From: Candidatus Aminicenantes bacterium
GTDB taxonomy: Bacteria; Acidobacteriota; Aminicenantia; Aminicenantales; JAFGAV01
Direction of reading: 5' to 3'
Assembly: GCA_963702835.1 (NCBI GenBank)
Contig: OY969762.1
Coordinates: forward strand, 1,838,626-1,902,625
Length of the DNA: 64,000 bases
Part shown: in pieces, positions 1-46,171 of the stretch
Numbering within the stretch: position 1 is the first letter of the stretch
Layout of the letters: every line of letters begins with the position of its first letter
Program-made: the position numbers and the translations under genes
The notes under the pieces: generated by a model
Database searches by the model: none
What the model saw: the letters and a program-made list of their open reading frames with translations, nothing else
Told to the model about the DNA's origin: nothing

Positions 1-273
1 AAAGTTCCTAACATCACCGCTGTAAAACTGAATGGCCGGATGACTTGCCAGGTGTGGCGCCCTCCTCCTAAAAGCTTCTGGGTTTCTCGTCAAGACGAGG
101 GCCGAAGCGTCCAATCCCAATTTGTCATTCGCCCAGGCAAAACTCTCCAGAAGCCAGCAGCCAAAGAAGCCGGTTCCGCCGGTTATGAAAATGCGCTGCC
201 CTCGCAGCTCCTCCCAAAGGCCTTCAGTGTGAGCGAGAATGTGATCTAAATCACTTGCCAGAAGGTTAGCCAT
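1..273 (-). CDS. NAD-dependent epimerase/dehydratase family protein, N-terminal part only (gene runs off window start). Candidate CDP-3,6-dideoxyhexose synthase or epimerase of the paratose/abequose/tyvelose type.
   Basis: Manual minus-strand translation from ATG at 271-273 gives [68 protein letters not shown]..., which has a Rossmann GxxGxxG motif. There is no stop inside the window, so it is absent from the ORF track. It starts 22 nt downstream of the rfbF stop. Confidence 0.55.
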
Positions 274-295
274 AGGTCCTACAAAGTAGCCAGCT

Positions 296-1078
296 TCACC
301 AAGTCTTCCATGGCGGCTTCCCGCTTTCCCATAGCGATTCTAAGTATTTTAAATCTCTTAGAGTATCCATACACTGCCAAAATCCCTCGTGTTGATAGGC
401 GAATAATTGGCCATCAACGGCAAGACGTTCCATGGGCGCATGTTCCCACATAACGTCCGCCTTGATATAATTGAGTGCTTCAGGTTCGACAACGAAAAAG
501 CCGCCGTTAATCCAGCCTTCGTGCAAAGTGGATTTTTCCTTGAAATGACGGATGCGATTGCCCTCGAATTCCAGCGCGCCAAAACGAGCTGGCGGTCGAA
601 CGGCGGTAAGAGTGACCAAGCCTCTTTGTGAGCGATGAAAAGACAAGAGCTTGTCCAAGGCGACATCGCCCAGGCCATCGCCGTAAGTCAACATAAAAGT
701 TCTTTTGCCGATCAGATGTTCCAATTTTTTCAGCCGCCCGCCAGTCAAAGTGTCCGCGCCAGTATCTACAAGATGTACGCGCCAGCGTTCCATGCTATTG
801 TGCTTGAGTGTCTGAACCTGCCCATCTTCTAGCGACACGGTGAAATCCCGGCTGAGCGTGTGAAATTCAAGAAAGTAGCGCTTGATTTGTTCACCTTTGT
901 ATCCCAGCGCCAGAATAAACTCTTTGAAACCGTAGTGGCAATAGTGCTTCATGATATGCCAGAGAATGGGCTGTCCGCCGATTTCGACCATGGGCTTAGG
1001 CTTGAACTCGGTTTCCTCACGCAGTCGCGTCCCTATGCCCCCGCATAAAATCACGACAGGAATGTTCTGTTCAGTCAT
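296..1078 (-). CDS. rfbF: glucose-1-phosphate cytidylyltransferase (CDP-glucose pyrophosphorylase)
   Basis: The 260-aa product has the N-terminal nucleotidyltransferase motif [38 protein letters not shown], typical of RfbF/DdhA. Its length matches. Confidence 0.9.
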
Positions 1079-1211
1079 TCTTCACCTTCTGCTCATGGTC
1101 ATCGTTGGTCGCGTGAAAATACTGCTCATGCCACTGAATAGTGGCCTGAAGCGCGGTTTCCAGCGTAAATGACGGCGGCCAATTCAACATCTCTTTCGCC
1201 TTACAACTTGG

Positions 1212-1949
1212 CTATTCCCATGCGTCAATTTTGATTGCCCCTGCGCCTATGCCCATGCTGCGCAGATCTTGCGAGATGACTTGCAGCATGGAAGGTGGCC
1301 CGGAGATGTAATAAGTGGCTTCCCTAGGGCGCCGGATTTTGGGCCACATGGCAGCCACCGACAAACGTCCGATGCTATCAAGTCCGTCAGATTCCTTCAT
1401 CGCCGGGCGAGTCTTAGTGTCTTGCTCGACAAAATAGGACAAATGCAGCGAAGGCACGGTTTGGACGCGCTGCTGAACCAGTTCACGATAGATCAACAAA
1501 CCCTTGGTTCGAGCGCCATACGCCAGGTAAACTGCGTGTCGAGAGTCAGGCGTCAGTCCTTCCAGAAAAGCAGTGAAAGCCGTAATCCCTGTACCTCCGG
1601 CGAATAGGACGACATCTCCGGTATTGTTCACCACAAATTCGCCGTAGGGCATCTTGACCCAAACCTGGCCGCCTTCGGCAAGTTCTTTTTCCATTCGCGC
1701 CGTAAATCGGCCGCGCACCGAATAGGAAATGCGCAGTCGATCCCTTTGCAAAGGCGAGTTAGCGATTGAAAACACGCGCGACTCAGGCCAGAAACCACTA
1801 GGGTCATAATCGTCGAGCGCCAGATGCAAGAATTGCCCGGGGCGAAACCTTGGAGCTAGCCGCTCTGGCCGCAAGGTCACAGTATACACGTGATCGCCGT
1901 GGTTGATAATTTGCTCGACTCTACACGGCAGTTTCTGTGCTACAGCCAT
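1212..1949 (-). CDS. FNR-like FAD/NAD(P)-binding oxidoreductase; candidate CDP-6-deoxy-delta-3,4-glucoseen reductase (DdhD/AscD-like) that lacks the N-terminal [2Fe-2S] ferredoxin domain
   Basis: It has the FNR-family motifs RPGQFLHL, RxYS (RISYSVRG) and GGTGITAF. The ORF track extends to 2021 with a TTG start. The ATG at 1947-1949 (MAVAQKLP...) is preferred. No CxxxxCxxC ferredoxin motif is present. It lies between rfbH and rfbF. Confidence 0.6.
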   Translation of the reverse strand: MAVAQKLPCRVEQIINHGDHVYTVTLRPERLAPRFRPGQFLHLALDDYDPSGFWPESRVFSIANSPLQRDRLRISYSVRGRFTARMEKELAEGGQVWVKMPYGEFVVNNTGDVVLFAGGTGITAFTAFLEGLTPDSRHAVYLAYGARTKGLLIYRELVQQRVQTVPSLHLSYFVEQDTKTRPAMKESDGLDSIGRLSVAAMWPKIRRPREATYYISGPPSMLQVISQDLRSMGIGAGAIKIDAWE

Positions 1950-2032
1950 GCGTTCATCACAAACGGAATTTGTCTTCCATCTATCACGTACGTTGCCCGT
2001 GCATGAACCTGGCAAAGACAAGGATCGGCATT

Positions 2033-3304
2033 TTATGCTCTTTTAAAGAACTCTTCGAACACTTCTAAGATATAATCAATCTGCGCTTTCCCGATTCCCG
2101 GAAAGAGGCCGATGAAAAAGGTATTGTTCATGATCAGATCCGTATTCTTCAAGTCGCCAAATTGTCGTTTCTTGATGCCCAGGAAAGCCGGCTGCCTGAT
2201 CAAGTTGCCGCAGAAAAGGTTCCTCGTTTCTATGCCGTTTTGCTCCAGGAAAGATGTCAATTTATTCCGAGAGAATCCTGCGTCCTCTTTGACCGTAAGC
2301 AAAAAACCGAACCAGGACGGGTCACTGTGAGGGGTTGCTTCGGGCAGGATTATTTTATTCTGATAAGGAATCAGGCCACTGTAAAGGCGGTCAAAATTCT
2401 CCTTTCTTCTCCGGACAAACCATTCGAGCTTATCCAGCTGGGCTACCCCAATTGAAGCCTGCATATCGGTCATTTTCAGATTATAACCGATATGGGAGTA
2501 GACATATTTATGGTCGTATCCCGGAGGGAGTGTGCCAAATTGCTGGGAGAATCGTTTCCCGCAAGTGTTGCTTTCTCCCGGATTGCAGTAGCAGTCTCTT
2601 CCCCAATCGCGAAATGACCTGGCGATCCTGGCCAATTCCTCATCATTGGTGACGACACAACCCCCTTCACCTGTCGTGATGTGATGAGCAGGATAGAAGG
2701 AAACGGTAGAGAGATGTCCGAAAGTCCCGGTCAGCCTCTCACGGTATTTGCTTCCCAGCGAATCACAATTATCTTCGATGAGCCAGAGATCATGCTTTTT
2801 TACTAGCTCTAAAACGGCATCGACGTCGAACGGATTTCCTAAAGTGTGAGCCAGGAAAATCGCCCTTGTTTTTGGGCCTATGGCCTCTTTCAATTGCCCA
2901 GGAATGGCATCATAAGTCCCTAGGTTGATATCAACGAAAACAGGGATCAAATTATTTTGGACTATTGGAGCAACAGTTGATGGGAAACCCGCCGCTACTG
3001 TAACGATTTCATCGCCCGGCTTGAGCCGCCGATCTCCGAGCTTGGGAGAGGTCAGTGTACTTAGAGCCACGAGGTTCGCCGATGAGCCGGAATTGACCAG
3101 AATGGCATCTGAAACATCGAAGTATTGAGCGAATTTCGACTCGAACTCTTCTGCGTATCTTCCCGATGTCAGCCAAAAGTCAAGGGAGGAATCAACCAGG
3201 TTTATGATCTCTTTTTCATCGAAGACGCGGCCCGCATAGCGGACCGGCGTCTTTCCTGGAATAAATGATTTTCCCTGATACTTTTGCTTATAAAGCTTTT
3301 CCAC
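2033..3304 (-). CDS. rfbH: CDP-4-keto-6-deoxy-D-glucose-3-dehydrase (E1; PLP/PMP-dependent, DegT/DnrJ/EryC1 fold)
   Basis: The 423-aa product has a DegT-family aminotransferase fold and a Cys cluster (DCYCNPGESNTCGKRF) consistent with the E1 iron-sulfur site. It has a GTG start and overlaps rfbG by 17 nt. Confidence 0.8.
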   Translation of the reverse strand: MEKLYKQKYQGKSFIPGKTPVRYAGRVFDEKEIINLVDSSLDFWLTSGRYAEEFESKFAQYFDVSDAILVNSGSSANLVALSTLTSPKLGDRRLKPGDEIVTVAAGFPSTVAPIVQNNLIPVFVDINLGTYDAIPGQLKEAIGPKTRAIFLAHTLGNPFDVDAVLELVKKHDLWLIEDNCDSLGSKYRERLTGTFGHLSTVSFYPAHHITTGEGGCVVTNDEELARIARSFRDWGRDCYCNPGESNTCGKRFSQQFGTLPPGYDHKYVYSHIGYNLKMTDMQASIGVAQLDKLEWFVRRRKENFDRLYSGLIPYQNKIILPEATPHSDPSWFGFLLTVKEDAGFSRNKLTSFLEQNGIETRNLFCGNLIRQPAFLGIKKRQFGDLKNTDLIMNNTFFIGLFPGIGKAQIDYILEVFEEFFKRA

Positions 3305-36667: not shown

Positions 36668-39100
<2,433 letters not shown>

Positions 39101-39137
39101 CTTTTCTTCTCTCTTTTTAGCTCTCTTCAGCTCTCTC

Positions 39138-39557
39138 TCATCGGCCTTCCCTCCGGCCGGCCTTGATCAGGATAATAACCAGGACGCCGTTGTCCAGGAC
39201 GGCTTTGGCCTTGTCCGGCAGAACGGCGCCGGGCAGGGCCACCACCCGGCGGAACGGCCCGCTCTCCCTTTCCAGGCGGAGATAGCGGGCGGGTTCGGTA
39301 TGGTTCTCCTGTTTCTTTTGCCCGCGCAGCTCGATGCGGTTGTGGTGGACCAGGAGAGTGATGTCGCGGGGTTCGACCCCGGGCAGTTCGGCCCTGACCA
39401 CGATCCGCTCCTCCTGCTCATAGACGTCCAGCGCGGGTATCCACTGCTTCTCCAGAGAAAGGCGGCTCCGCTCGTTGAACAGGACCCGGCCTTGGACGCT
39501 GGCGATCTCCCCCTGGGCGGAGACCAATCGGCAGACGGGGATATTCTTGCGGACCAT
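39138..39557 (-). CDS. Hsp20/α-crystallin small heat-shock protein
   Basis: The α-crystallin domain has ALDVYEQEERIVVRAELPGV, LPGAV.. and KAVLDNGVLVI. ATG 39557 is used. Confidence 0.85.
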   Translation of the reverse strand: MVRKNIPVCRLVSAQGEIASVQGRVLFNERSRLSLEKQWIPALDVYEQEERIVVRAELPGVEPRDITLLVHHNRIELRGQKKQENHTEPARYLRLERESGPFRRVVALPGAVLPDKAKAVLDNGVLVIILIKAGRREGR

Positions 39558-39567
39558 CAGCGGCGGA

Positions 39568-40023
39568 TCACTTCTCTTTGAGAAGGGTTTCCAGCTCGCG
39601 CTTGAACTCGGACACGTCGCGGAACTCGCGGTAAACCGAGGCGAAACGGACGTAGGCCACCTTATCCAGCTCCTTGAGCCGCTCCATGACGTACTGGCCG
39701 ATCTCCGAGGAGCGAATCTCCTTATCGGCCCGCTCATGCAGCTTGGACTCGATCTCCTCCACGATCTCCTCGACTTTCTTGATCGGGATGGGTCTTTTCT
39801 CGCAGGCCTTGAGCAGCCCCCGCAGGAGCTTCTGGCTGTCGAAGGGCTGGCGGCTGCCGTCCTTTTTAACGACCATATAAGGAATCTCTTCGATCTTCTC
39901 GTAGGTGGTGAAACGGCGCCGGCAGGCCAAGCACTCCCGGCGGCGGCGGATGGACAGGCCCTTCTTGCTCTCCCGGGAATCGATGACCTTGCTCTCCTGG
40001 TCGTCGCAGTAAGGACACTTCAT
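39568..40023 (-). CDS. nrdR: transcriptional repressor NrdR
   Basis: The N-terminal zinc ribbon is MKCPYC...[12 protein letters not shown], followed by an ATP-cone. ATG 40023 is used. Confidence 0.9.
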
Positions 40024-41089
40024 TCCTGGAATTCCTCGCCCATCTTTTTCAGTTGAAGGAGGGAAAGCCCTTCTTTCCAGATTATAACAAAACCGACCAG
40101 GCAAGTCATCACGACCTGGATGGCATGAACGATCAGGGTCATGCTGGCGGCTTTGGTGGCCAAGGCCCGCATCACTTCCCGGCCGGCGCCGGCCGGGATC
40201 TTGCGGCTGAAATAGAGACGCATCAGCGCCTCCTTGCTGAAGTAATCGAACCCCCCCACCATGCCCGGGGTGGGGATGGAGGCGCCGACCATGGTCAGGA
40301 AGACATAGGGGATGACCTTGTAGTAAGCCTGGGGCTCGTGGTAGGCCAGGAAGAACAGCCAGTAATAGCCGACAATGGCCAGCCAGACGACGAGCGACAG
40401 GCCGAAGAAGCGGAGCAGGTCCTTGACCGAACGGAAGAAGCGCAGCCCCTGGATGAACTCCTCGGTGAGCCGGCGGATCTTTCCCCCCATTTTTTGGGCA
40501 GGGGCCGGAGAAAGACGGCGATGATCTTGAGGGTCCGCTCCCGGAAGAAATGCAGGCTGAGGACCACCAGGAAAACAACTATGTCGAACCCCAACCCGGC
40601 CGTGCCCCAGATGAAGAGCCAGCGGGCGTTGGACGGGCTGAGGGGAAAGGAGGAGCTGTACAGGGGCCGGGCCAGGAGAAAGACGGCCAGCAGGAAGACC
40701 ATGGCGATGATATCGAACAGGCGCTCCACGACTATGGTGCCCAGGGCGAAGCCCGCGTTGATGTTTTCCTTCTTGGCCAGGAAGAGCGGCTTGACGATCT
40801 CGCCCAGGCGGCCGGGCAGGATGAGGGTCACCGTGAACCCCACGGCCTGGCCGGCCACCAGGTTGTAGAGCTTGACGTCCTTCTTCTCAGGCAGGATGAG
40901 ATACTTCCAGCGCCAGGCCCGGGTGATGAGGTGGACGGGAGCGAGCAGGATGAGGAGGACGAAAAAGACGAGGTTGACGTCGGCCAGGTTCGAGAAAAAC
41001 TTGCTCCATTCGACGCTGCGGAAGAAAAAGAAGAGCAGGACTCCGGTCAGGACCAGAATGATTCCGTAGCGAATGATCCTTTTTCTCAT
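40020..41089 (-). CDS. flippase-like/UPF0104 (lysylphosphatidylglycerol-synthase TM-region family) membrane protein; apparent frameshift at the C6/T6 run 40483-40495
   Basis: The N-terminal 264-aa ORF (multi-TM) and the C-terminal 156-aa ORF (…[18 protein letters not shown]…) are the two halves of one family member. A seventh A or G in the homopolymers would restore ...LPKK(M/W)[11 protein letters not shown]. Confidence 0.7.
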
Positions 41090-41317: not shown

Positions 41318-41391
41318 TGGGAAGTCGTCCAATGGCAGGACACATGACTCTGGATCATGGAATCAAGGTTCGAATCCTTGCTTCCCAGCCA
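41318..41391 (+). tRNA. tRNA-Gln (anticodon CTG), CCA encoded
   Basis: The manual fold is: U1-A72 acceptor TGGGAAG/CTTCCCA, D-stem GTCC/GGAC, anticodon stem CATGA/TCATG with loop CTCTGGA (anticodon CUG), T-stem CAAGG/CCTTG with loop TTCGAAT, discriminator G, then CCA. Confidence 0.85.
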
Positions 41392-41658
41392 GCTTATTTT
41401 TCTGTGTTTTCAGCCTTTTAATCCTTTTTTGTCTTTCAATCCTGATACCGCAGTTTCAGTGCTTTTCAATTAATTTTGTCACACATTTGGCCCACCCGGC
41501 CCCATCAGTCCCTTGCCTGCCAGACACCTCATGAATATTATCAGTCCTGGCTTAAGGAGCAAAAGCCTAAGGCATTACTCATGTAGTGGACGAGTTCAGG
41601 TCATTGACTTTTCGAATTAGAGCGTGCTACTTTATCATCAGAAATCCAAGGAGGGACC

Positions 41659-42135
41659 ATGAAAAAACTCTCATTCCAGAGAAAGTCTCTTTCATTCGGT
41701 GCGGTGATCGTGCTGTCCGTCTTGGGACTCCTCGGCCTCACGACATTGTCGTCGAGCCGTCCGCCGGCGGCTTTTTCGGGACAGACGTTCGATCCGCAGA
41801 ATCCGCCCGCTAACACAGTTGTCTTTTTTGAGGACACCAATTACCAGGGCCGTTGGTTCGCCTCTCCATACGACCGCGACTATTCCGACCTGCGCGGTAT
41901 CTACCTTGGAGAAAATCAGAGCAGCGGGAATTGGAACGACCGCGTCTCCTCGCTCAAGATCGGGAAGGACGCCTGCGTGACGCTGTGGAAGGACATCAAC
42001 TTCAAGGGAGATAAAAGCGCCCTCCAGGGGAACCAGACATCGACCAACTGCATCAGCTCGCTGGTCCCCAGCGGTTGGAACGACAAGCTCAGCTCGTTCA
42101 AGGTCCGCATGAGGAACAACTGCGCGCAGAAGTGA
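41659..42135 (+). CDS. secreted βγ-crystallin (Greek-key) domain protein
   Basis: It has a signal peptide and two Greek-key signatures (VVFFEDTNYQGRWF...S and VTLWKDINFKGDKSAL...S). A strong SD (AAGGAGGG) precedes it. Confidence 0.7.
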   Translation: MKKLSFQRKSLSFGAVIVLSVLGLLGLTTLSSSRPPAAFSGQTFDPQNPPANTVVFFEDTNYQGRWFASPYDRDYSDLRGIYLGENQSSGNWNDRVSSLKIGKDACVTLWKDINFKGDKSALQGNQTSTNCISSLVPSGWNDKLSSFKVRMRNNCAQK

Positions 42136-42258
42136 TCCACTGAACGAGCTCCGCCCCGGCGCTTCCGGGGATCGTCATGAAAACTCAACCTGAAGGGCAA
42201 GATGCTCTATCTTTTTTGCTCTCAATGAATTAGTGATGCCCAAATCTCATGGCTGACC

Positions 42259-42305
42259 TGACTCTGGATTATGGAATCAAGGTTCGAATCCTTGCTTCCC
42301 AGCCA
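42259..42305 (+). repeat. 47-nt direct repeat of the tRNA-Gln 3' half (anticodon loop to CCA), 46/47 identical to 41345-41391
   Basis: The sequence tgactctggatTatggaatcaaggttcgaatccttgcttcccagcca compares to ...ggatCatgg... in the intact tRNA. It forms an attL/attR-like pair bracketing ~870 bp. Confidence 0.85.
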
Positions 42306-42450
42306 CCCTGATTTTCCTTCAGTCATTGTCATTTTATCCCTCCTTGACGATTGGTTAGTATCCTAAGCAAAAATTCCTTTATCTCGCTTTCCCGAACATT
42401 AAATATCGCGCCTGCTCATCTAGGCTTATCCAAAAAATTTCAAAACAGAT

Positions 42451-43053
42451 ATGTTTTTCTCGACTAAATACTACGCCCGGGCGCTTCAGGCGCGTATTTT
42501 ATGCCCGGCACCGGCGACCATGACCCTCATCAGCATTTTAGTCAAGCCTTCCCGCTGGCCCGAAACGAAAATGGTCGGGAAGATTCTTTTTCTACTAGGG
42601 GTTGGGTTGCTCACCTTCAGCAGCACATGCCTTTTGGGCTTCAGGGATTTCTGCATAGAGCATTCCACCGCCATCCTGTCCATCTTGGTGACCTCTTTTG
42701 TGCTCATTTTGGCCGGCGAATCGATTATAAACTTGGCTGGAAATATTGAGCCCAAGCCCGGCCGGAGCAGATCTTTTCTTCGCTGGCTGGCCGAGCCGCT
42801 AAACCCTATGAACACCCTGAAAATCTTAAAGCGGGACTTTGAACACAGGTGCTTTTTCTGCGGTATCGACTTTGTTCTCCCCCAAGTGTCCGAGAGCCAG
42901 GAGGAATCGCAGGAAAGAGATTTTGATAGATTGATGTTCGGCATCTGCCTTGGATGCGGAAAGGCCGTCTGCCCGAGGTGCGCTTATATGAAAGGATTGG
43001 AGATGAAGGTCAAATCCCTTCACTGCCCGGGCTGCGGCAGCTTCGTCCTCTAA
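42451..43053 (+). CDS. membrane protein with C-terminal 4-Cys zinc-ribbon-like motifs, unknown function
   Basis: There are two predicted TM helices, then CFFCG...CLGCGKAVCPRC...CPGCG. The alternative start at 42571 is MVGKIL... The GC content is lower. Confidence 0.5.
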   Translation: MFFSTKYYARALQARILCPAPATMTLISILVKPSRWPETKMVGKILFLLGVGLLTFSSTCLLGFRDFCIEHSTAILSILVTSFVLILAGESIINLAGNIEPKPGRSRSFLRWLAEPLNPMNTLKILKRDFEHRCFFCGIDFVLPQVSESQEESQERDFDRLMFGICLGCGKAVCPRCAYMKGLEMKVKSLHCPGCGSFVL

Positions 43054-43156
43054 GCCGAGCCTCAGGGGGCTCGCCCCGTCACTCCCGAATCCCCATTATC
43101 CAGGTCGTGGCCGGGTTGACGTTCGGCGTAAAATTAATATATCGTTTATTTTAACC

Positions 43157-44113
43157 ATGAAGACGGAGAGCTTGAAGAACTCTGCCCCTCGAACCAGGGA
43201 AGGCCAGATCTGGGCCATGGCCGGCGGAAAAGGCGGCACGGGCAAAACCTTCCTCGTCAGCAGCATGGGCACCTACCTGGCCAAGAAGCAGAATTCGGTC
43301 ACCCTGGTGGATTTCGACCTGGGCGGGGCCAACCTCCACTCTTTCCTCAACCTGGACCAGCCGCGGCAGACCCTGACCCGCTTCTTCGACAAGTCAGGCG
43401 CACTCCTCGACGACCTGGCCCTGCCCACCGGCATCGACAACATGTCCCTCATCAGCGGCGACCTGGAATCCATCTCCTCGGACAGCATCACCTTCAGCCA
43501 GAAGCTCAAGCTTTTCCGCCAGATGATGAAGCTCCACACCCAGTACATCCTCATCGACCTGGGCGCCGGCTGCCACAACAACACCCTGGACACCTTCCTC
43601 CTCGCCGACAAGATGATCACCCTGGTCACCCCCGAGATCACGGCCGTGGAGAACATGTACCGCTTCATCAAAAGCGCCCTCTACCGCAAGCTGAAGATGA
43701 CGCTCAAGGCCTACGGCTTCAAGGACACGGCCCGGCTCATCTGGCAGAAGCGGGAGTCTTACGGCATTACCAACATCAAGGAATTCATCGACCACCTCCG
43801 CCGCCAGTTGACCGACCTGGCCCCCATCCTGGACCATGAGCTGGACGGGTTCAAGGTCTATATCGTGGTGAACATGACCCGCGACAGCCAGGACATTCTC
43901 CTGGGCGCCTCGCTCAAGAGCCTGCTCCAGAAGTTTCTGGGCATCCAGGCCCTCTACGCCGGCTACATCGAGCACGACGACGCCGTGTGGCGCTCCATCC
44001 GGGAAAGGCGGCCGTTCATGATCAACTACCTGGCCAGCCGCTCTTCCAAGGAAGTCGAAATCCTGGTGGACAACCTCATCCAGGATAAAGAGGTCCAGTT
44101 GCTGTGGAGTTAA
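43157..44113 (+). CDS. MinD/ParA-family P-loop ATPase (deviant Walker A KGGTGKT)
   Basis: IWAMAGGKGGTGKTFLVSSMGTYLA is the deviant Walker A, followed by ILIDLGAG (Walker B-like). The 318-aa product has a ~60-aa C-terminal extension relative to MinD. Confidence 0.75.
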   Translation: MKTESLKNSAPRTREGQIWAMAGGKGGTGKTFLVSSMGTYLAKKQNSVTLVDFDLGGANLHSFLNLDQPRQTLTRFFDKSGALLDDLALPTGIDNMSLISGDLESISSDSITFSQKLKLFRQMMKLHTQYILIDLGAGCHNNTLDTFLLADKMITLVTPEITAVENMYRFIKSALYRKLKMTLKAYGFKDTARLIWQKRESYGITNIKEFIDHLRRQLTDLAPILDHELDGFKVYIVVNMTRDSQDILLGASLKSLLQKFLGIQALYAGYIEHDDAVWRSIRERRPFMINYLASRSSKEVEILVDNLIQDKEVQLLWS

Positions 44114-44114
44114 G

Positions 44115-44711
44115 ATGAGCGACCCGAACAAGGAACGCGATTTCAAAGTCCTGGAGCTCGGCCCGAAGGCCACCCTGGCCGAAGTGAAGAACGCCTACCT
44201 CAGGCTGAAGAAACTGTATTCGGCCGACTCGGCCCTCCTCTCCCCCATCTCCCAGGAAATTCCCGAGGACAAGCGGCTCCGGATCCTGCTGGAGGTCGAG
44301 GAGGCCTACAAGAGTCTTCTCGAATACTTCCGGGAGGAAGCCTCCTTGAGAGCCGAAGGAGGAGGGCCGGCGCCGGCCGCCGGTACCCGGCCGTCGGCCG
44401 TCTCCGGAACCTCCCCAGAAAAGAGCGCGGCCGCCGGCGAGGAACTGACCTTCTCCGGCCCGGTGCTGAAGAGGATCCGGGAGAGCCTGGGCATCCCCCT
44501 CCATCTGATCTTCCACACCACAAAAATTCGGGTCGAGCAGCTGGAGGCCATCGAGGAAGAGAACTTCGCCAAGCTCCCCGACGAGGCCTATATCAAGGCC
44601 CACCTCAAGGAATATGCCGGCCACCTGTCCCTTAATCCAAAAAGGGTCATCAACGACTACCTGAAACGGTACGCGGAGTGGAAAAAAATTCACCGGCCGG
44701 AGCAACATTAG
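44115..44711 (+). CDS. J-domain-like (no HPD) plus RodZ-type HTH (HTH_25) protein
   Basis: The N-terminal ATLAEVKNAYLRLKKLYSADS is J-like but lacks HPD. The C-terminal LKRIRESLGIPLHLIFHTTKIRVEQLEAIEEENFAKLPDEAYIKAHLKEYAGHLSL matches the RodZ N-terminal HTH pattern. It starts 2 nt after the MinD-like gene's stop. Confidence 0.55.
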   Translation: MSDPNKERDFKVLELGPKATLAEVKNAYLRLKKLYSADSALLSPISQEIPEDKRLRILLEVEEAYKSLLEYFREEASLRAEGGGPAPAAGTRPSAVSGTSPEKSAAAGEELTFSGPVLKRIRESLGIPLHLIFHTTKIRVEQLEAIEEENFAKLPDEAYIKAHLKEYAGHLSLNPKRVINDYLKRYAEWKKIHRPEQH

Positions 44712-44809
44712 AAAAAATACTGAGGAACCCTGCCGAGAGGCTTGCCCGCAAAGTGAACCGCCCAGGAACTGAAACCAATATAAAACGTATCTGGATAGTG
44801 GAGGTCAAG

Positions 44810-45517
44810 ATGAGTCTATCCACTTTGCTAAAATTTTTGATACTTTTTCCGGCTGTCGGCCTTATCCTCGCCTGTGAGCCGGCCGGAGAGACGCGCACGG
44901 ACACTCGTCAGGTCGCCCTGGCCGGAGCTGAAACGGCCGAGGTGAGCATCCGCATGGGCGCCGGCGAGCTGCGGGTGGAGGGCGGCACCGGGGACCTCAT
45001 GGACGCGACTTTCCGCACCAACCGGCCGAGCCTCGAGCCGGAAGTCGACTACAACGTGGTCAACAAACGGGGCATCCTCACCGTCCGCCACAAGCGCTAC
45101 ACCCGCCTCGGCTTCGGCCGGACGGTCAACGACTGGGACATCCGCCTGAACCAGGAAACGCCCATCAACCTTCGGGTAAACCTCGGCGCGGGTGAAAGCC
45201 GGCTGGACTGCCGGGGGATCAAGCTCGACCGGGTGAGGGTCAAGATGGGCGTAGGCCGGATGACGCTCGACCTGTCGGGGCCCCGGGCCACAAGCCTCGA
45301 CGTCAATGTCGAAGGGGGGGTGGGCAGCGCAACGATTTACCTGCCCAAGGAAGTCGGCGTCCGGGCCAGAGTGCACAAAGGGCTGGGCTCGGTCGAGGCG
45401 GAAGGCTTGACTCGATCGGACGGCGTCTATACCAACCAGGCCTACGGCCGGAGCGCGGTGACCCTGGAGATCAGGGTCGAAGCCGGCATCGGCAGCATCC
45501 AACTCGAGCTGCGCTAG
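44810..45517 (+). CDS. DUF4097/'toast-rack' β-helical putative adhesin lipoprotein
   Basis: It has a lipobox (LILAC) and repeated rungs GAGELRVEGG / GAGESRLD / GVGRMTLD / GVGSATIYL. ATG 44810 follows GGAGGT. Confidence 0.6.
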   Translation: MSLSTLLKFLILFPAVGLILACEPAGETRTDTRQVALAGAETAEVSIRMGAGELRVEGGTGDLMDATFRTNRPSLEPEVDYNVVNKRGILTVRHKRYTRLGFGRTVNDWDIRLNQETPINLRVNLGAGESRLDCRGIKLDRVRVKMGVGRMTLDLSGPRATSLDVNVEGGVGSATIYLPKEVGVRARVHKGLGSVEAEGLTRSDGVYTNQAYGRSAVTLEIRVEAGIGSIQLELR

Positions 45518-45535: not shown

Positions 45536-46171
45536 TCAGCTTTTCAAGCGTTTGGATTCCTTTTCGATCGACCGGAAGCCGAGAGGCTCATCAGGCTCTT
45601 TAGCGGTCTTAATCTTTTTAAGAATAAGCGGCTTACCGGTTTTGAAAAACTGGAGAGGGCCGGGATTCTCGATGAAGCGGAGGATCTTCTCCGGGGCGTC
45701 GGTAATGAAAATGTCGTCGCCGTGCGGATCCTGCTTGACCTCCCCCTCTAGCTTTCCCTCCTCGACGGCCTTGGCGAAGACGTCCTCGTTGGGAAACCAC
45801 AGCAGAAGCTCGTCCTGGTCCGTGAATTTATATTGAAGCAGATAATAGCGGTCCATCCACTTCCCGTCCTCCTGGAAACGCACCGATAGAAAGTTGTTCT
45901 TCTTTCCCCTGGTGATGATCATCTCGCCCTGGACCATTTGAAACTGGTCGTCTTTCCAATCCAACCCGGCCAGACGGGCGACGCCGCTCGCGGCAAATCG
46001 GATGAAGACGACCTCTTCTTCGCTGAGCCAGGCGCCCTCGAACTTATCCCGGTCGATGGGTTCCGGCGCCGAGGAGAGGGGCTGCCTGGTCGTGACAAAA
46101 GAGCAGCCGGAAAGCAACAGTAAGAGGGGAATAAAAAAGAGCAAGAGACAGGTTTTCTTTATAATACTCAT
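45536..46171 (-). CDS. lipoprotein, unknown function
   Basis: It has a signal peptide with an LLSGC lipobox. No recognised domain was found. Confidence 0.55.
   Translation of the reverse strand: MSIIKKTCLLLFFIPLLLLLSGCSFVTTRQPLSSAPEPIDRDKFEGAWLSEEEVVFIRFAASGVARLAGLDWKDDQFQMVQGEMIITRGKKNNFLSVRFQEDGKWMDRYYLLQYKFTDQDELLLWFPNEDVFAKAVEEGKLEGEVKQDPHGDDIFITDAPEKILRFIENPGPLQFFKTGKPLILKKIKTAKEPDEPLGFRSIEKESKRLKS

Follow-up and report, generated by a model that had tools for sequence, protein, structure and literature searches.

A conserved pair of genes for a ParA/MinD-type ATPase and an HPD-less J-like/RodZ-type helix-turn-helix protein, found beside tRNA-Gln in Candidatus Aminicenantes and also present in other bacterial phyla

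In a 64,000-nucleotide stretch of the genome of a Candidatus Aminicenantes bacterium (contig OY969762.1, positions 1,838,626 to 1,902,625; hereafter, the window), four co-directional genes lie beside a tRNA-Gln gene and raise the question of which of them belong together and what they may do. An initial annotation, made without database searches, described them as a candidate four-gene positioning or envelope-associated module comprising a two-transmembrane protein with a zinc-ribbon-like end, a ParA/MinD-type ATPase, a protein joining a J-like domain to a RodZ-type helix-turn-helix (HTH) domain of the HTH_25 family (the J/HTH protein, or partner), and a lipoprotein. The names given to homologues likewise point to Candidatus Aminicenantes. 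All four open reading frames (ORFs) are present (Table 1; the fourth as 44678-45517). Judged from gene linkage across genomes, however, the conserved unit is two genes, the ATPase and its J/HTH partner, and not four. The overall best explanation, to which we assign a probability of roughly 0.5, is that the pair is a chromosomal two-gene cassette in which an ATP switch would act through an HTH adaptor targeting MreB or DNA. The pair apparently represents a widespread, uncharacterized ParA/MinD-type system with an adaptor architecture not previously reported.

The linkage of the two genes carries this conclusion. A scan of one genome per GTDB species with a peptide pattern derived from an alignment of 8 partner sequences recovered 19 loci, the pattern (IEE[ED]NF-type) being one that favors members retaining that motif. 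Nine of them encoded a full J/HTH protein and belonged to Aminicenantales, Nitrospiraceae, Nitrospirae, Bdellovibrionales, Bacteriovoracaceae (three), and Polyangiaceae (two); the ATPase was directly upstream of the J/HTH part in 9/9. The other 10 loci (Lactobacillaceae, Ornithinibacillus, Streptomyces, and two proteobacterial metagenome-assembled genomes (MAGs)) had a RodZ-type HTH only, with no adjoining ATPase. A metagenome scan gave 59 loci, 35 of which had J/HTH; all 32 with enough upstream DNA carried the ATPase directly upstream, and none of 23 metagenome loci with a J-less HTH_25 had the ATPase beside it. When a profile of 21 partner sequences was compared with 1.84 billion 50%-identity representatives (E <= 1e-30), at least 1,351 such clusters were assigned to the partner family, of which the best 150 all span both domains. 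The pair occurs in at least four phyla, namely Aminicenantes, Nitrospirota, Bdellovibrionota, and Myxococcota.

All-against-all clustering of neighboring ORFs revealed no third gene common to different phyla, and local synteny was conserved inside each phylum but different between phyla; together, these results indicate that the unit shared among phyla is the two genes. In Nitrospirota, the order is scpA-x-scpB-ATPase-J/HTH, where the end of scpB and the start of the ATPase gene share 4 nt, which hints, in this phylum only, at co-expression with condensin subunits. Bdellovibrionota have mutS2, followed at some distance by a minus-strand membrane protein gene and then ATPase-J/HTH-rluD-yfiH; rluD and yfiH-like neighbors are shared by related loci of this phylum. 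A taxonomically unassigned group, seen only in metagenomes, has the pair between era and type II secretion pseudopilin genes. The orphan ParA1 and ParA2 of Bdellovibrio bacteriovorus (PMC7186360) are possible members of this ATPase family; the Bdellovibrionales locus L013 has no bolA-like ORF adjoining the pair, unlike parA1. As a side observation, the Nitrospirota block (L005, 2596-6693; also L012) has the same orientation throughout, and its gene x encodes a 282-aa protein without a recorded Pfam match.

The junction between the ATPase and J/HTH genes ranges across lineages from a 4-nt ATGA overlap up to a ~29-nt gap. In the window, the spacer was first given as 2 nt and is actually 1 nt (TAA-G-ATG), and a GGAG Shine-Dalgarno sequence lies inside the 3' end of the ATPase gene. 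Moreover, the two genes are occasionally fused: two Polyangiaceae MAGs (L010 and L011, 3999-5585) encode ATPase, J-like domain, and HTH_25 in a single 528-aa ORF, and a high-GC metagenome contig (L077, 270-1667) encodes an ATPase fused directly to HTH_25 without the J-like domain. The Polyangiaceae fusion has a degenerate Walker A (GARGGVGTS), with both lysines lost, together with an altered DxD motif, and may be a scaffold that has lost its catalytic activity. Invariant adjacency, putative coupling, and fusion suggest that the two proteins act together, very probably as a physical complex. On this genomic evidence, the ATPase and its partner are co-inherited, predicted to be co-expressed, and sometimes fused.

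Two other identities for the pair were considered and rejected. A plasmid partition cassette was discounted because no ATPase match at E <= 1e-10 was found in 72,556 plasmids and because chromosomal synteny is conserved within phyla; plasmid matches of the partner were limited to RodZ-type HTH domains on chromids. As for a defense system, PADLOC gave no significant match (the best was mad8, E 7e-4, 17 bits).

The ATPase, as initially described, is of the ParA/MinD type with a deviant Walker A. Direct reading gave the motifs GGKGGTGKT (Walker A; signature K25, P-loop K30), DFD (Walker A'), and IDLG (Walker B), and the protein scored above the Pfam cut-offs for CbiA, AAA_31, and ParA. The catalytic motif residues were invariant in 24 Aminicenantes orthologues and kept across phyla, the Polyangiaceae fusion being the exception. 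By sequence (phmmer), the closest PDB match was FleN (5J1J, E 2.7e-13), with a FleN gap opposite residues 174-225. The AlphaFold2 (AF2) model (pLDDT 86.7, pTM 0.86) had FleN (5J1J), FlhG (4RZ3), and MinD as its top Foldseek matches (TMt <=0.84, ~20% identity; E 7e-15 for FlhG/FleN), with Soj/ParA slightly below them, and phmmer gave the same ranking. The scores against the NCBIfam MinD models TIGR01968, NF008079, and TIGR01969 were 56.7, 35.1, and 62.8 bits, below the cut-offs of 212.9, 508, and 201.75 bits, respectively. Orthologues of other phyla were likewise below these MinD cut-offs, and no NCBIfam model reached its cut-off for the ATPase or the partner in any lineage. Alignment and a hydrophobic-moment scan of the orthologues gave no conserved C-terminal amphipathic membrane-targeting helix, the tails being short, variable, and often polar; no flagellar (flhF/fli) or min (minC/minE) neighbors were present among the annotated or clustered genes of more than 40 loci; and a second minD-like gene was not found in the window with approximate query sequences. 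The N-terminus was unconserved in the alignment and disordered in the AF2 model, and no DQAxxLR-type motif, which we take to be the N-terminal FlhF-activating motif of FlhG/FleN, was visible on reading it. The ATPase is in the MinD/FlhG branch of ParA-type ATPases, yet it is neither canonical MinD nor FlhG; the fold agrees with a grouping with these proteins, and the MinD cut-offs, the tail, and the neighbors all speak against it.

Compared with FleN, the ATPase has ~50 extra residues after the helix succeeding the Walker B strand. This extra length had been taken for a C-terminal extension and proved to be an internal helical insertion (~residues 174-230), which in the AF2 model is part of a small helical subdomain (helices 161-185, 189-197, 207-217, and 222-230). 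The insertion was alignable in all orthologues across phyla (consensus ENxYRFIKSAxYRRL...) and had a net charge of +2 to +9; the ATPase as a whole was also net basic.

The partner comprises a J-like four-helix domain (~4-81), a disordered linker (83-109), and a RodZ-type five-helix HTH_25 (~112-193), and its AF2 model (pLDDT 80.5) has confident helical domains at 1-82 and 112-193. Pfam detected HTH_25 (PF13413) at E 1e-17; as a single sequence, the partner reached 14.3 bits against DnaJ, which is below the cut-off of 27.8. The family profile matched both the RodZ cytoplasmic domains 3FYM, 4GQM, and 2WUS (E 2e-13 to 1e-10) and solved DnaJ J domains (E ~1e-9) in PDB. In Foldseek, the HTH aligned with RodZ at TMt 0.76-0.82 (root-mean-square deviation 1.6 Å, ~31% identity), and the N-terminal domain aligned with the J domains of CbpA and DnaJ at TMt ~0.65; RodZ structures ranked first among the PDB matches in both the sequence and the fold comparison. 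The lack of HPD, noted at the outset, holds for the whole family: the motif is replaced by S-A-D in the window and by [S/N]-[K/R]-D in 148 family representatives, with His and Pro absent and the J-domain hallmarks of helices II and III retained. Loss of His-Pro in J proteins abolishes Hsp70 stimulation; the family-wide loss therefore indicates that this J-like domain has been re-purposed and cannot serve as an Hsp70 co-chaperone. The partner had no transmembrane or hydrophobic segment and no DUF4115 match, and its chain ends 5 residues past the HTH. At the positions equivalent to the MreB-contact aromatics of RodZ, mapped through the family-profile alignment with contact residues taken from a review (PMC6946637), the window partner has Y159 and H163, and the family has Y/F in 148/148 and F/Y in 141/148 representatives. 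Alanine mutants of T. maritima RodZ Y53/Y57, which lie in helix 4 and correspond to E. coli F60/Y64, lower MreB binding (PMC6946637). Separately, a linker motif, (V/I)(S/D)(I/V/L)(D/E)RxPP, was observed in 62/148 partner representatives (e.g., L013, 5001-5708, residues ~88-97, IISIDRTPPM) and was absent from the Aminicenantes proteins; Bdellovibrionota-type proteins have it as (V/I)SIDRxPPM. As a candidate function, this peptide may stimulate the ATPase or bind a third partner.

These features can be combined in a proposed mechanism. By analogy with deviant-Walker-A ATPases, the ATPase would form an ATP-dependent sandwich dimer and work as a switch governed by nucleotide. Its basic helical insertion comes after the helix equivalent to the one lining the MinC/MinE-binding dimer interface in MinD, and may provide the docking surface for the partner. 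The J-like domain may have been re-used as an ATPase-docking or ATPase-regulating module; it is acidic (mean charge -4.7) and would complement the basic insertion, and the J-less fusion of ATPase and HTH in L077 is consistent with such a docking role. The RodZ-type HTH would then be the effector end and may bind MreB as RodZ does, which is the least certain step. With this step included, the pair would act as a soluble RodZ counterpart under ATP control and set the place or time of MreB-directed wall growth, in parallel with MinD, which recruits the FtsZ-binding MinC. MreB is, tentatively, the most likely target of the HTH, with DNA, whether bound non-specifically or at specific sites, only slightly less probable. 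In its boldest form, the proposal would make the pair the first system of the ParA/MinD type to be directed at the actin-like cytoskeleton, docking a soluble RodZ-like adaptor through the re-purposed J domain and positioning, sequestering, or releasing MreB; this form is rather unlikely.

Several points weigh against the mechanism with MreB as the target. Structures were predicted for monomers only, so that the J-like domain and the insertion are putative docking elements. The Polyangiaceae fusion retains the J-like domain, so that covalent linkage does not always make this domain dispensable, and its degenerate Walker A implies that not every member needs to turn over ATP. The second MreB-contact position of the window partner is a His, and the conserved HTH aromatics may instead have a structural role or form contacts with the ATPase. 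mreB was found neither in the window, where approximate query sequences were used, nor in any of the loci, and the ATPase orthologues had no conserved C-terminal amphipathic helix that would point to the membrane as their surface. Finally, the HTH domains of the partner family are more basic than J-less RodZ HTH domains (mean charge +2.4 vs. -1.3), which leans towards DNA.

This last point leads to the alternative that survives best, which we regard as possible although doubtful: the HTH would bind DNA, in a non-specific or centromere-like manner, and the pair would act from the nucleoid in segregation, organization, or cargo positioning, similarly to ParA-ParB or McdA-McdB. The mildly basic HTH is of the XRE superfamily and has a conserved T-K-I-S-K in helix 3, and the net basic ATPase with its basic insertion would suit such a role. 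McdB-type adaptors have disordered regions, which the partner linker recalls. The position of the Nitrospirota pair after scpA-x-scpB, with the overlapping scpB stop, also suggests a chromosome-related function; however, this ScpAB context occurs in one phylum only. The HTH is most closely related to RodZ domains, for which an absence of DNA binding has been reported (PMC6946637), and neither a conserved operator or repeat upstream of the ATPase nor a plasmid counterpart was found.

Transcriptional control of the FleN-FleQ kind, in which the ATPase would switch the J/HTH protein as an HTH transcription factor in an ATP-dependent manner, is improbable. FleN is the best PDB match of the ATPase by both sequence and structure and the partner has an HTH, but this HTH is RodZ-type and is accompanied by neither an AAA+ nor a sigma-54 activator domain. 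In addition, no conserved palindrome was found near the promoter-like site of the pair, and the loci of different phyla share no regulon context, whether flagellar or other.

That the zinc-ribbon protein, the ATPase, the J/HTH protein, and the toast-rack lipoprotein cooperate as a four-gene envelope module is very improbable. The four genes are adjacent and co-directional and their order is kept in L008, L030, and L041; however, the relationship among these loci is close (ATPase >=79% identical), and a shared order is expected by descent. Conserved linkage, which had been named at the outset as a test of the four-gene module, holds for the ATPase and J/HTH genes and fails for the zinc-ribbon and toast-rack genes. 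The first of the flanking proteins has, as initially read, two hydrophobic segments together with four motifs of the CxxC type (CFFC, CLGC, CPRC, and CPGC); it has no Pfam, NCBIfam, PADLOC, or PDB match, and its start is uncertain, with homology beginning at residue 24. The second matches Toast_rack_N (PF17115, 75.3 bits, 4.8e-21) and LiaF-like_C (PF09922, 29.3 bits, 8.5e-07), which upholds the toast-rack assignment, and has no Pfam match to DUF4097, the label first applied to it. Its likely start is ATG 44810, which is preceded by a GGAGG Shine-Dalgarno sequence and followed by a lipobox-like LILAC and agrees with a 237-aa homologue in L030; with this start, the gene does not overlap the J/HTH gene. 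The pair is separated from the zinc-ribbon gene by 103 nt and from the lipoprotein start by 98 nt after the partner stop.

The distribution of the flanking genes is narrow. They are limited to a shallow clade with 79-98% identical ATPases (L008, L030/L031, L040, and L041), the zinc-ribbon gene occurring in all of these and the toast-rack gene in L008, L030, and L041 only, and both are absent from Aminicenantes relatives at 68%, 66%, and 59% ATPase identity and from all other phyla. In the Aminicenantales relatives at 59%, Lon-Hsp20-NrdR-LPG_synthase_TM (minus strand) is followed by tRNA-Gln, the ATPase, and J/HTH, and then by a cation-efflux gene on the opposite strand. The same block lies opposite to the pair in the window (36668-41089) and in L001-L004 and L032 (ATPase 59-68%). 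The zinc-ribbon gene has a GC content of ~0.51 vs. 0.60 and is placed after tRNA-Gln and before a promoter-like site predicted by consensus scan; the promoter-like block GGTTGACG...ATATATCGT aligns with L030, L041, and also L001, where no zinc-ribbon gene is present, and the pair thus appears to retain its own conserved promoter-like site. No conserved inverted repeat or autoregulatory operator was found upstream of the ATPase, and a noncoding RNA or riboswitch in the intergenic gaps was rejected, as Rfam gave only the tRNA.

In L001/L003, the tRNA-Gln gene immediately precedes the ATPase; in L008, it is upstream of the zinc-ribbon gene, and in L032 an opposite-strand PAP2 gene stands between it and the ATPase. 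By comparison of these loci, tRNA-Gln is the ancestral upstream neighbor of the ATPase in Aminicenantes and an insertion hot spot. An insertion at this tRNA, claimed from the start, was borne out: 61 nt of its 3' part (41342-41402) recur at 90% identity as a direct repeat 914 bp downstream, and this repeat is a genuine insertion scar. The 914-bp insert bracketed by the repeat occurs in the window only, and its gene is missing from the 95%-identical relative L008. The insert (41403-42255) contains an ORF (41659-42135) for a signal-peptide-bearing beta/gamma-crystallin/Inhibitor_I36-like protein; no integrase is present, and the arrangement looks like a decayed integration at the tRNA. The clade restriction, the lower GC content of the zinc-ribbon gene, the hot spot, and the conservation of the promoter-like site without the zinc-ribbon gene argue that both flanking genes are lineage-specific later arrivals and not components of the system. 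The term "envelope-associated", which leaned on these two genes, has lost its footing because they fall outside the conserved unit.

Table 1. Positions in the window of the ATPase-J/HTH pair and of the features around it
Feature	Coordinates	Strand	Basis
ParA/MinD-superfamily ATPase, 318 aa; first gene of the pair	43157..44113	+	Pfam, NCBIfam
J-like/RodZ-HTH partner, 198 aa; second gene of the pair	44115..44711	+	Pfam, family profile, AF2
Promoter-like site, TTGACG-N18-TATCGT	43116..43145	+	Consensus scan
Putative translational-coupling junction (GGAG, TAA, G, ATG)	44106..44117	+	Direct reading
Two-TM zinc-ribbon-like protein, neighbor outside the conserved unit	42451..43053	+	Direct reading
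Probable toast-rack lipoprotein, neighbor outside the conserved unit	44810..45517	+	Pfam, start-site reading
tRNA-Gln(CTG)	41318..41391	+	ARAGORN, Rfam
Duplicate of the tRNA-Gln 3' part, attachment-site-like repeat	42256..42316	+	Direct repeat

Some further observations concern the surroundings of the locus. The LPG_synthase_TM homologue of the window (40023-41089, minus strand) is split over two frames (41089-40478 and 40514-40023); relatives have it as a single gene for 343-367 aa, and the frameshift in the window represents a pseudogene or an assembly error. In L008, the ~3 kb upstream of tRNA-Gln (1-3092) gave no tblastn match to this gene, and the region upstream of tRNA-Gln may have been rearranged between the window and L008. 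Adjoining the toast-rack gene, the window encodes a 211-aa probable lipoprotein (45536-46171, minus strand) with a signal peptide ending in LLSGC and no Pfam or NCBIfam match, which is conserved in L008, L040, and L041.

The proposal that the pair is an ordinary FlhG or MinD beside a DnaJ-like gene, or a DnaK-recruiting chaperone system, is largely refuted and highly unlikely: the automatic JGI names "FlhG" for the ATPase and "CbpA" for the partner (other sources give "hypothetical" or "helix-turn-helix domain-containing") and the nearby Hsp20 and Lon genes in Aminicenantes speak for it, but the ATPase is far below the NCBIfam MinD cut-offs of 202-508 bits and has no conserved membrane-targeting tail, the more than 40 loci have no flhF/fli or minC/minE neighbors, His-Pro of the HPD is absent family-wide, and Lon/Hsp20 are on the opposite strand and Aminicenantes-specific.

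ParA/MinD ATPases are the chief known means of positioning large structures in bacteria in the absence of linear motors, and to our knowledge, every adaptor type added so far to these systems has revealed another cargo. No description of a ParA-like/MinD-like ATPase with a DnaJ/J-domain and RodZ/HTH_25 partner was found in the literature searched, in keeping with the initial statement that this is not a described system. The pair is large and old, as its number of clusters, its spread over phyla, its strict linkage, and its occasional fusion suggest, and the adaptor is of an unusual kind, in that it couples a J domain without its Hsp70-activating motif to an HTH of the MreB-binding type. Should MreB prove to be its target, ATP-driven patterning would be tied to cell-shape control, and wall growth in Bdellovibrionota, Nitrospirota, Myxococcota, and Aminicenantes may be patterned under nucleotide control, as an MreB counterpart of the MinD-MinC action on FtsZ. 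If it binds DNA, the pair would be a chromosomal, ParB-independent system of its own kind. Either way, two small soluble proteins are concerned, which makes these possibilities directly testable, and the automatic labels "FlhG" and "CbpA", which are spread over thousands of metagenomic genes, are corrected.

Among known systems, FleN/FlhG (5J1J, 4RZ3) share with the ATPase a deviant Walker A and the SIMIBI/ParA fold (TMt 0.83-0.84), and FleN-FleQ likewise pairs an ATPase with an HTH-bearing protein. The ATPase differs from FleN/FlhG in its low identity, its ~50-aa helical insertion, the lack of a conserved C-terminal amphipathic helix, and the absence of flagellar genes nearby, and its partner is not FlhF, FliM/FliY, or FleQ. 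ParA-ParB, McdA-McdB, and ParC-ParP resemble the pair in that an ATPase gene is followed by a gene for a dedicated adaptor with a disordered region, sometimes in tight coupling. The J-like + RodZ-HTH adaptor is, however, absent from the adaptors listed in a survey of ParA/MinD cargo pairs (PMC10241942), and no cargo genes are linked to the pair, unlike in those systems.

The J-like half of the partner recalls Tim16/Pam16, in which the J fold is kept and the catalytic HPD is lost; HPD-less J-like proteins of this kind serve as binding or regulatory modules. CbpA is similar in that a J-type domain is joined to a putative nucleic-acid- or polymer-binding region. Unlike Tim16/Pam16 and CbpA, the partner has neither a true J protein nor a CbpM as its counterpart, and the homology is limited to the J fold; unlike J-protein systems in general, the partner is encoded with a P-loop ATPase instead of Hsp70.

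In MinD-MinC/MinE, an ATP-dimerizing ATPase recruits a polymer-binding partner, and the proposed action of the pair on MreB would parallel that of MinC on FtsZ; moreover, the insertion of the window ATPase follows the equivalent of the partner-binding helix 7 of MinD. The pair differs from MinD in failing the NCBIfam MinD cut-offs and in lacking a membrane-targeting sequence and minC/minE, and its partner is unrelated to both MinC and MinE. With RodZ (2WUS, 3FYM, 4GQM), the partner shares a bona fide five-helix HTH with conserved aromatics at two MreB-contact positions. This HTH is N-terminal in RodZ and C-terminal in the partner, which has no transmembrane helix or periplasmic DUF4115 and, unlike RodZ, joins its HTH to a J-like domain and is encoded together with an ATPase.

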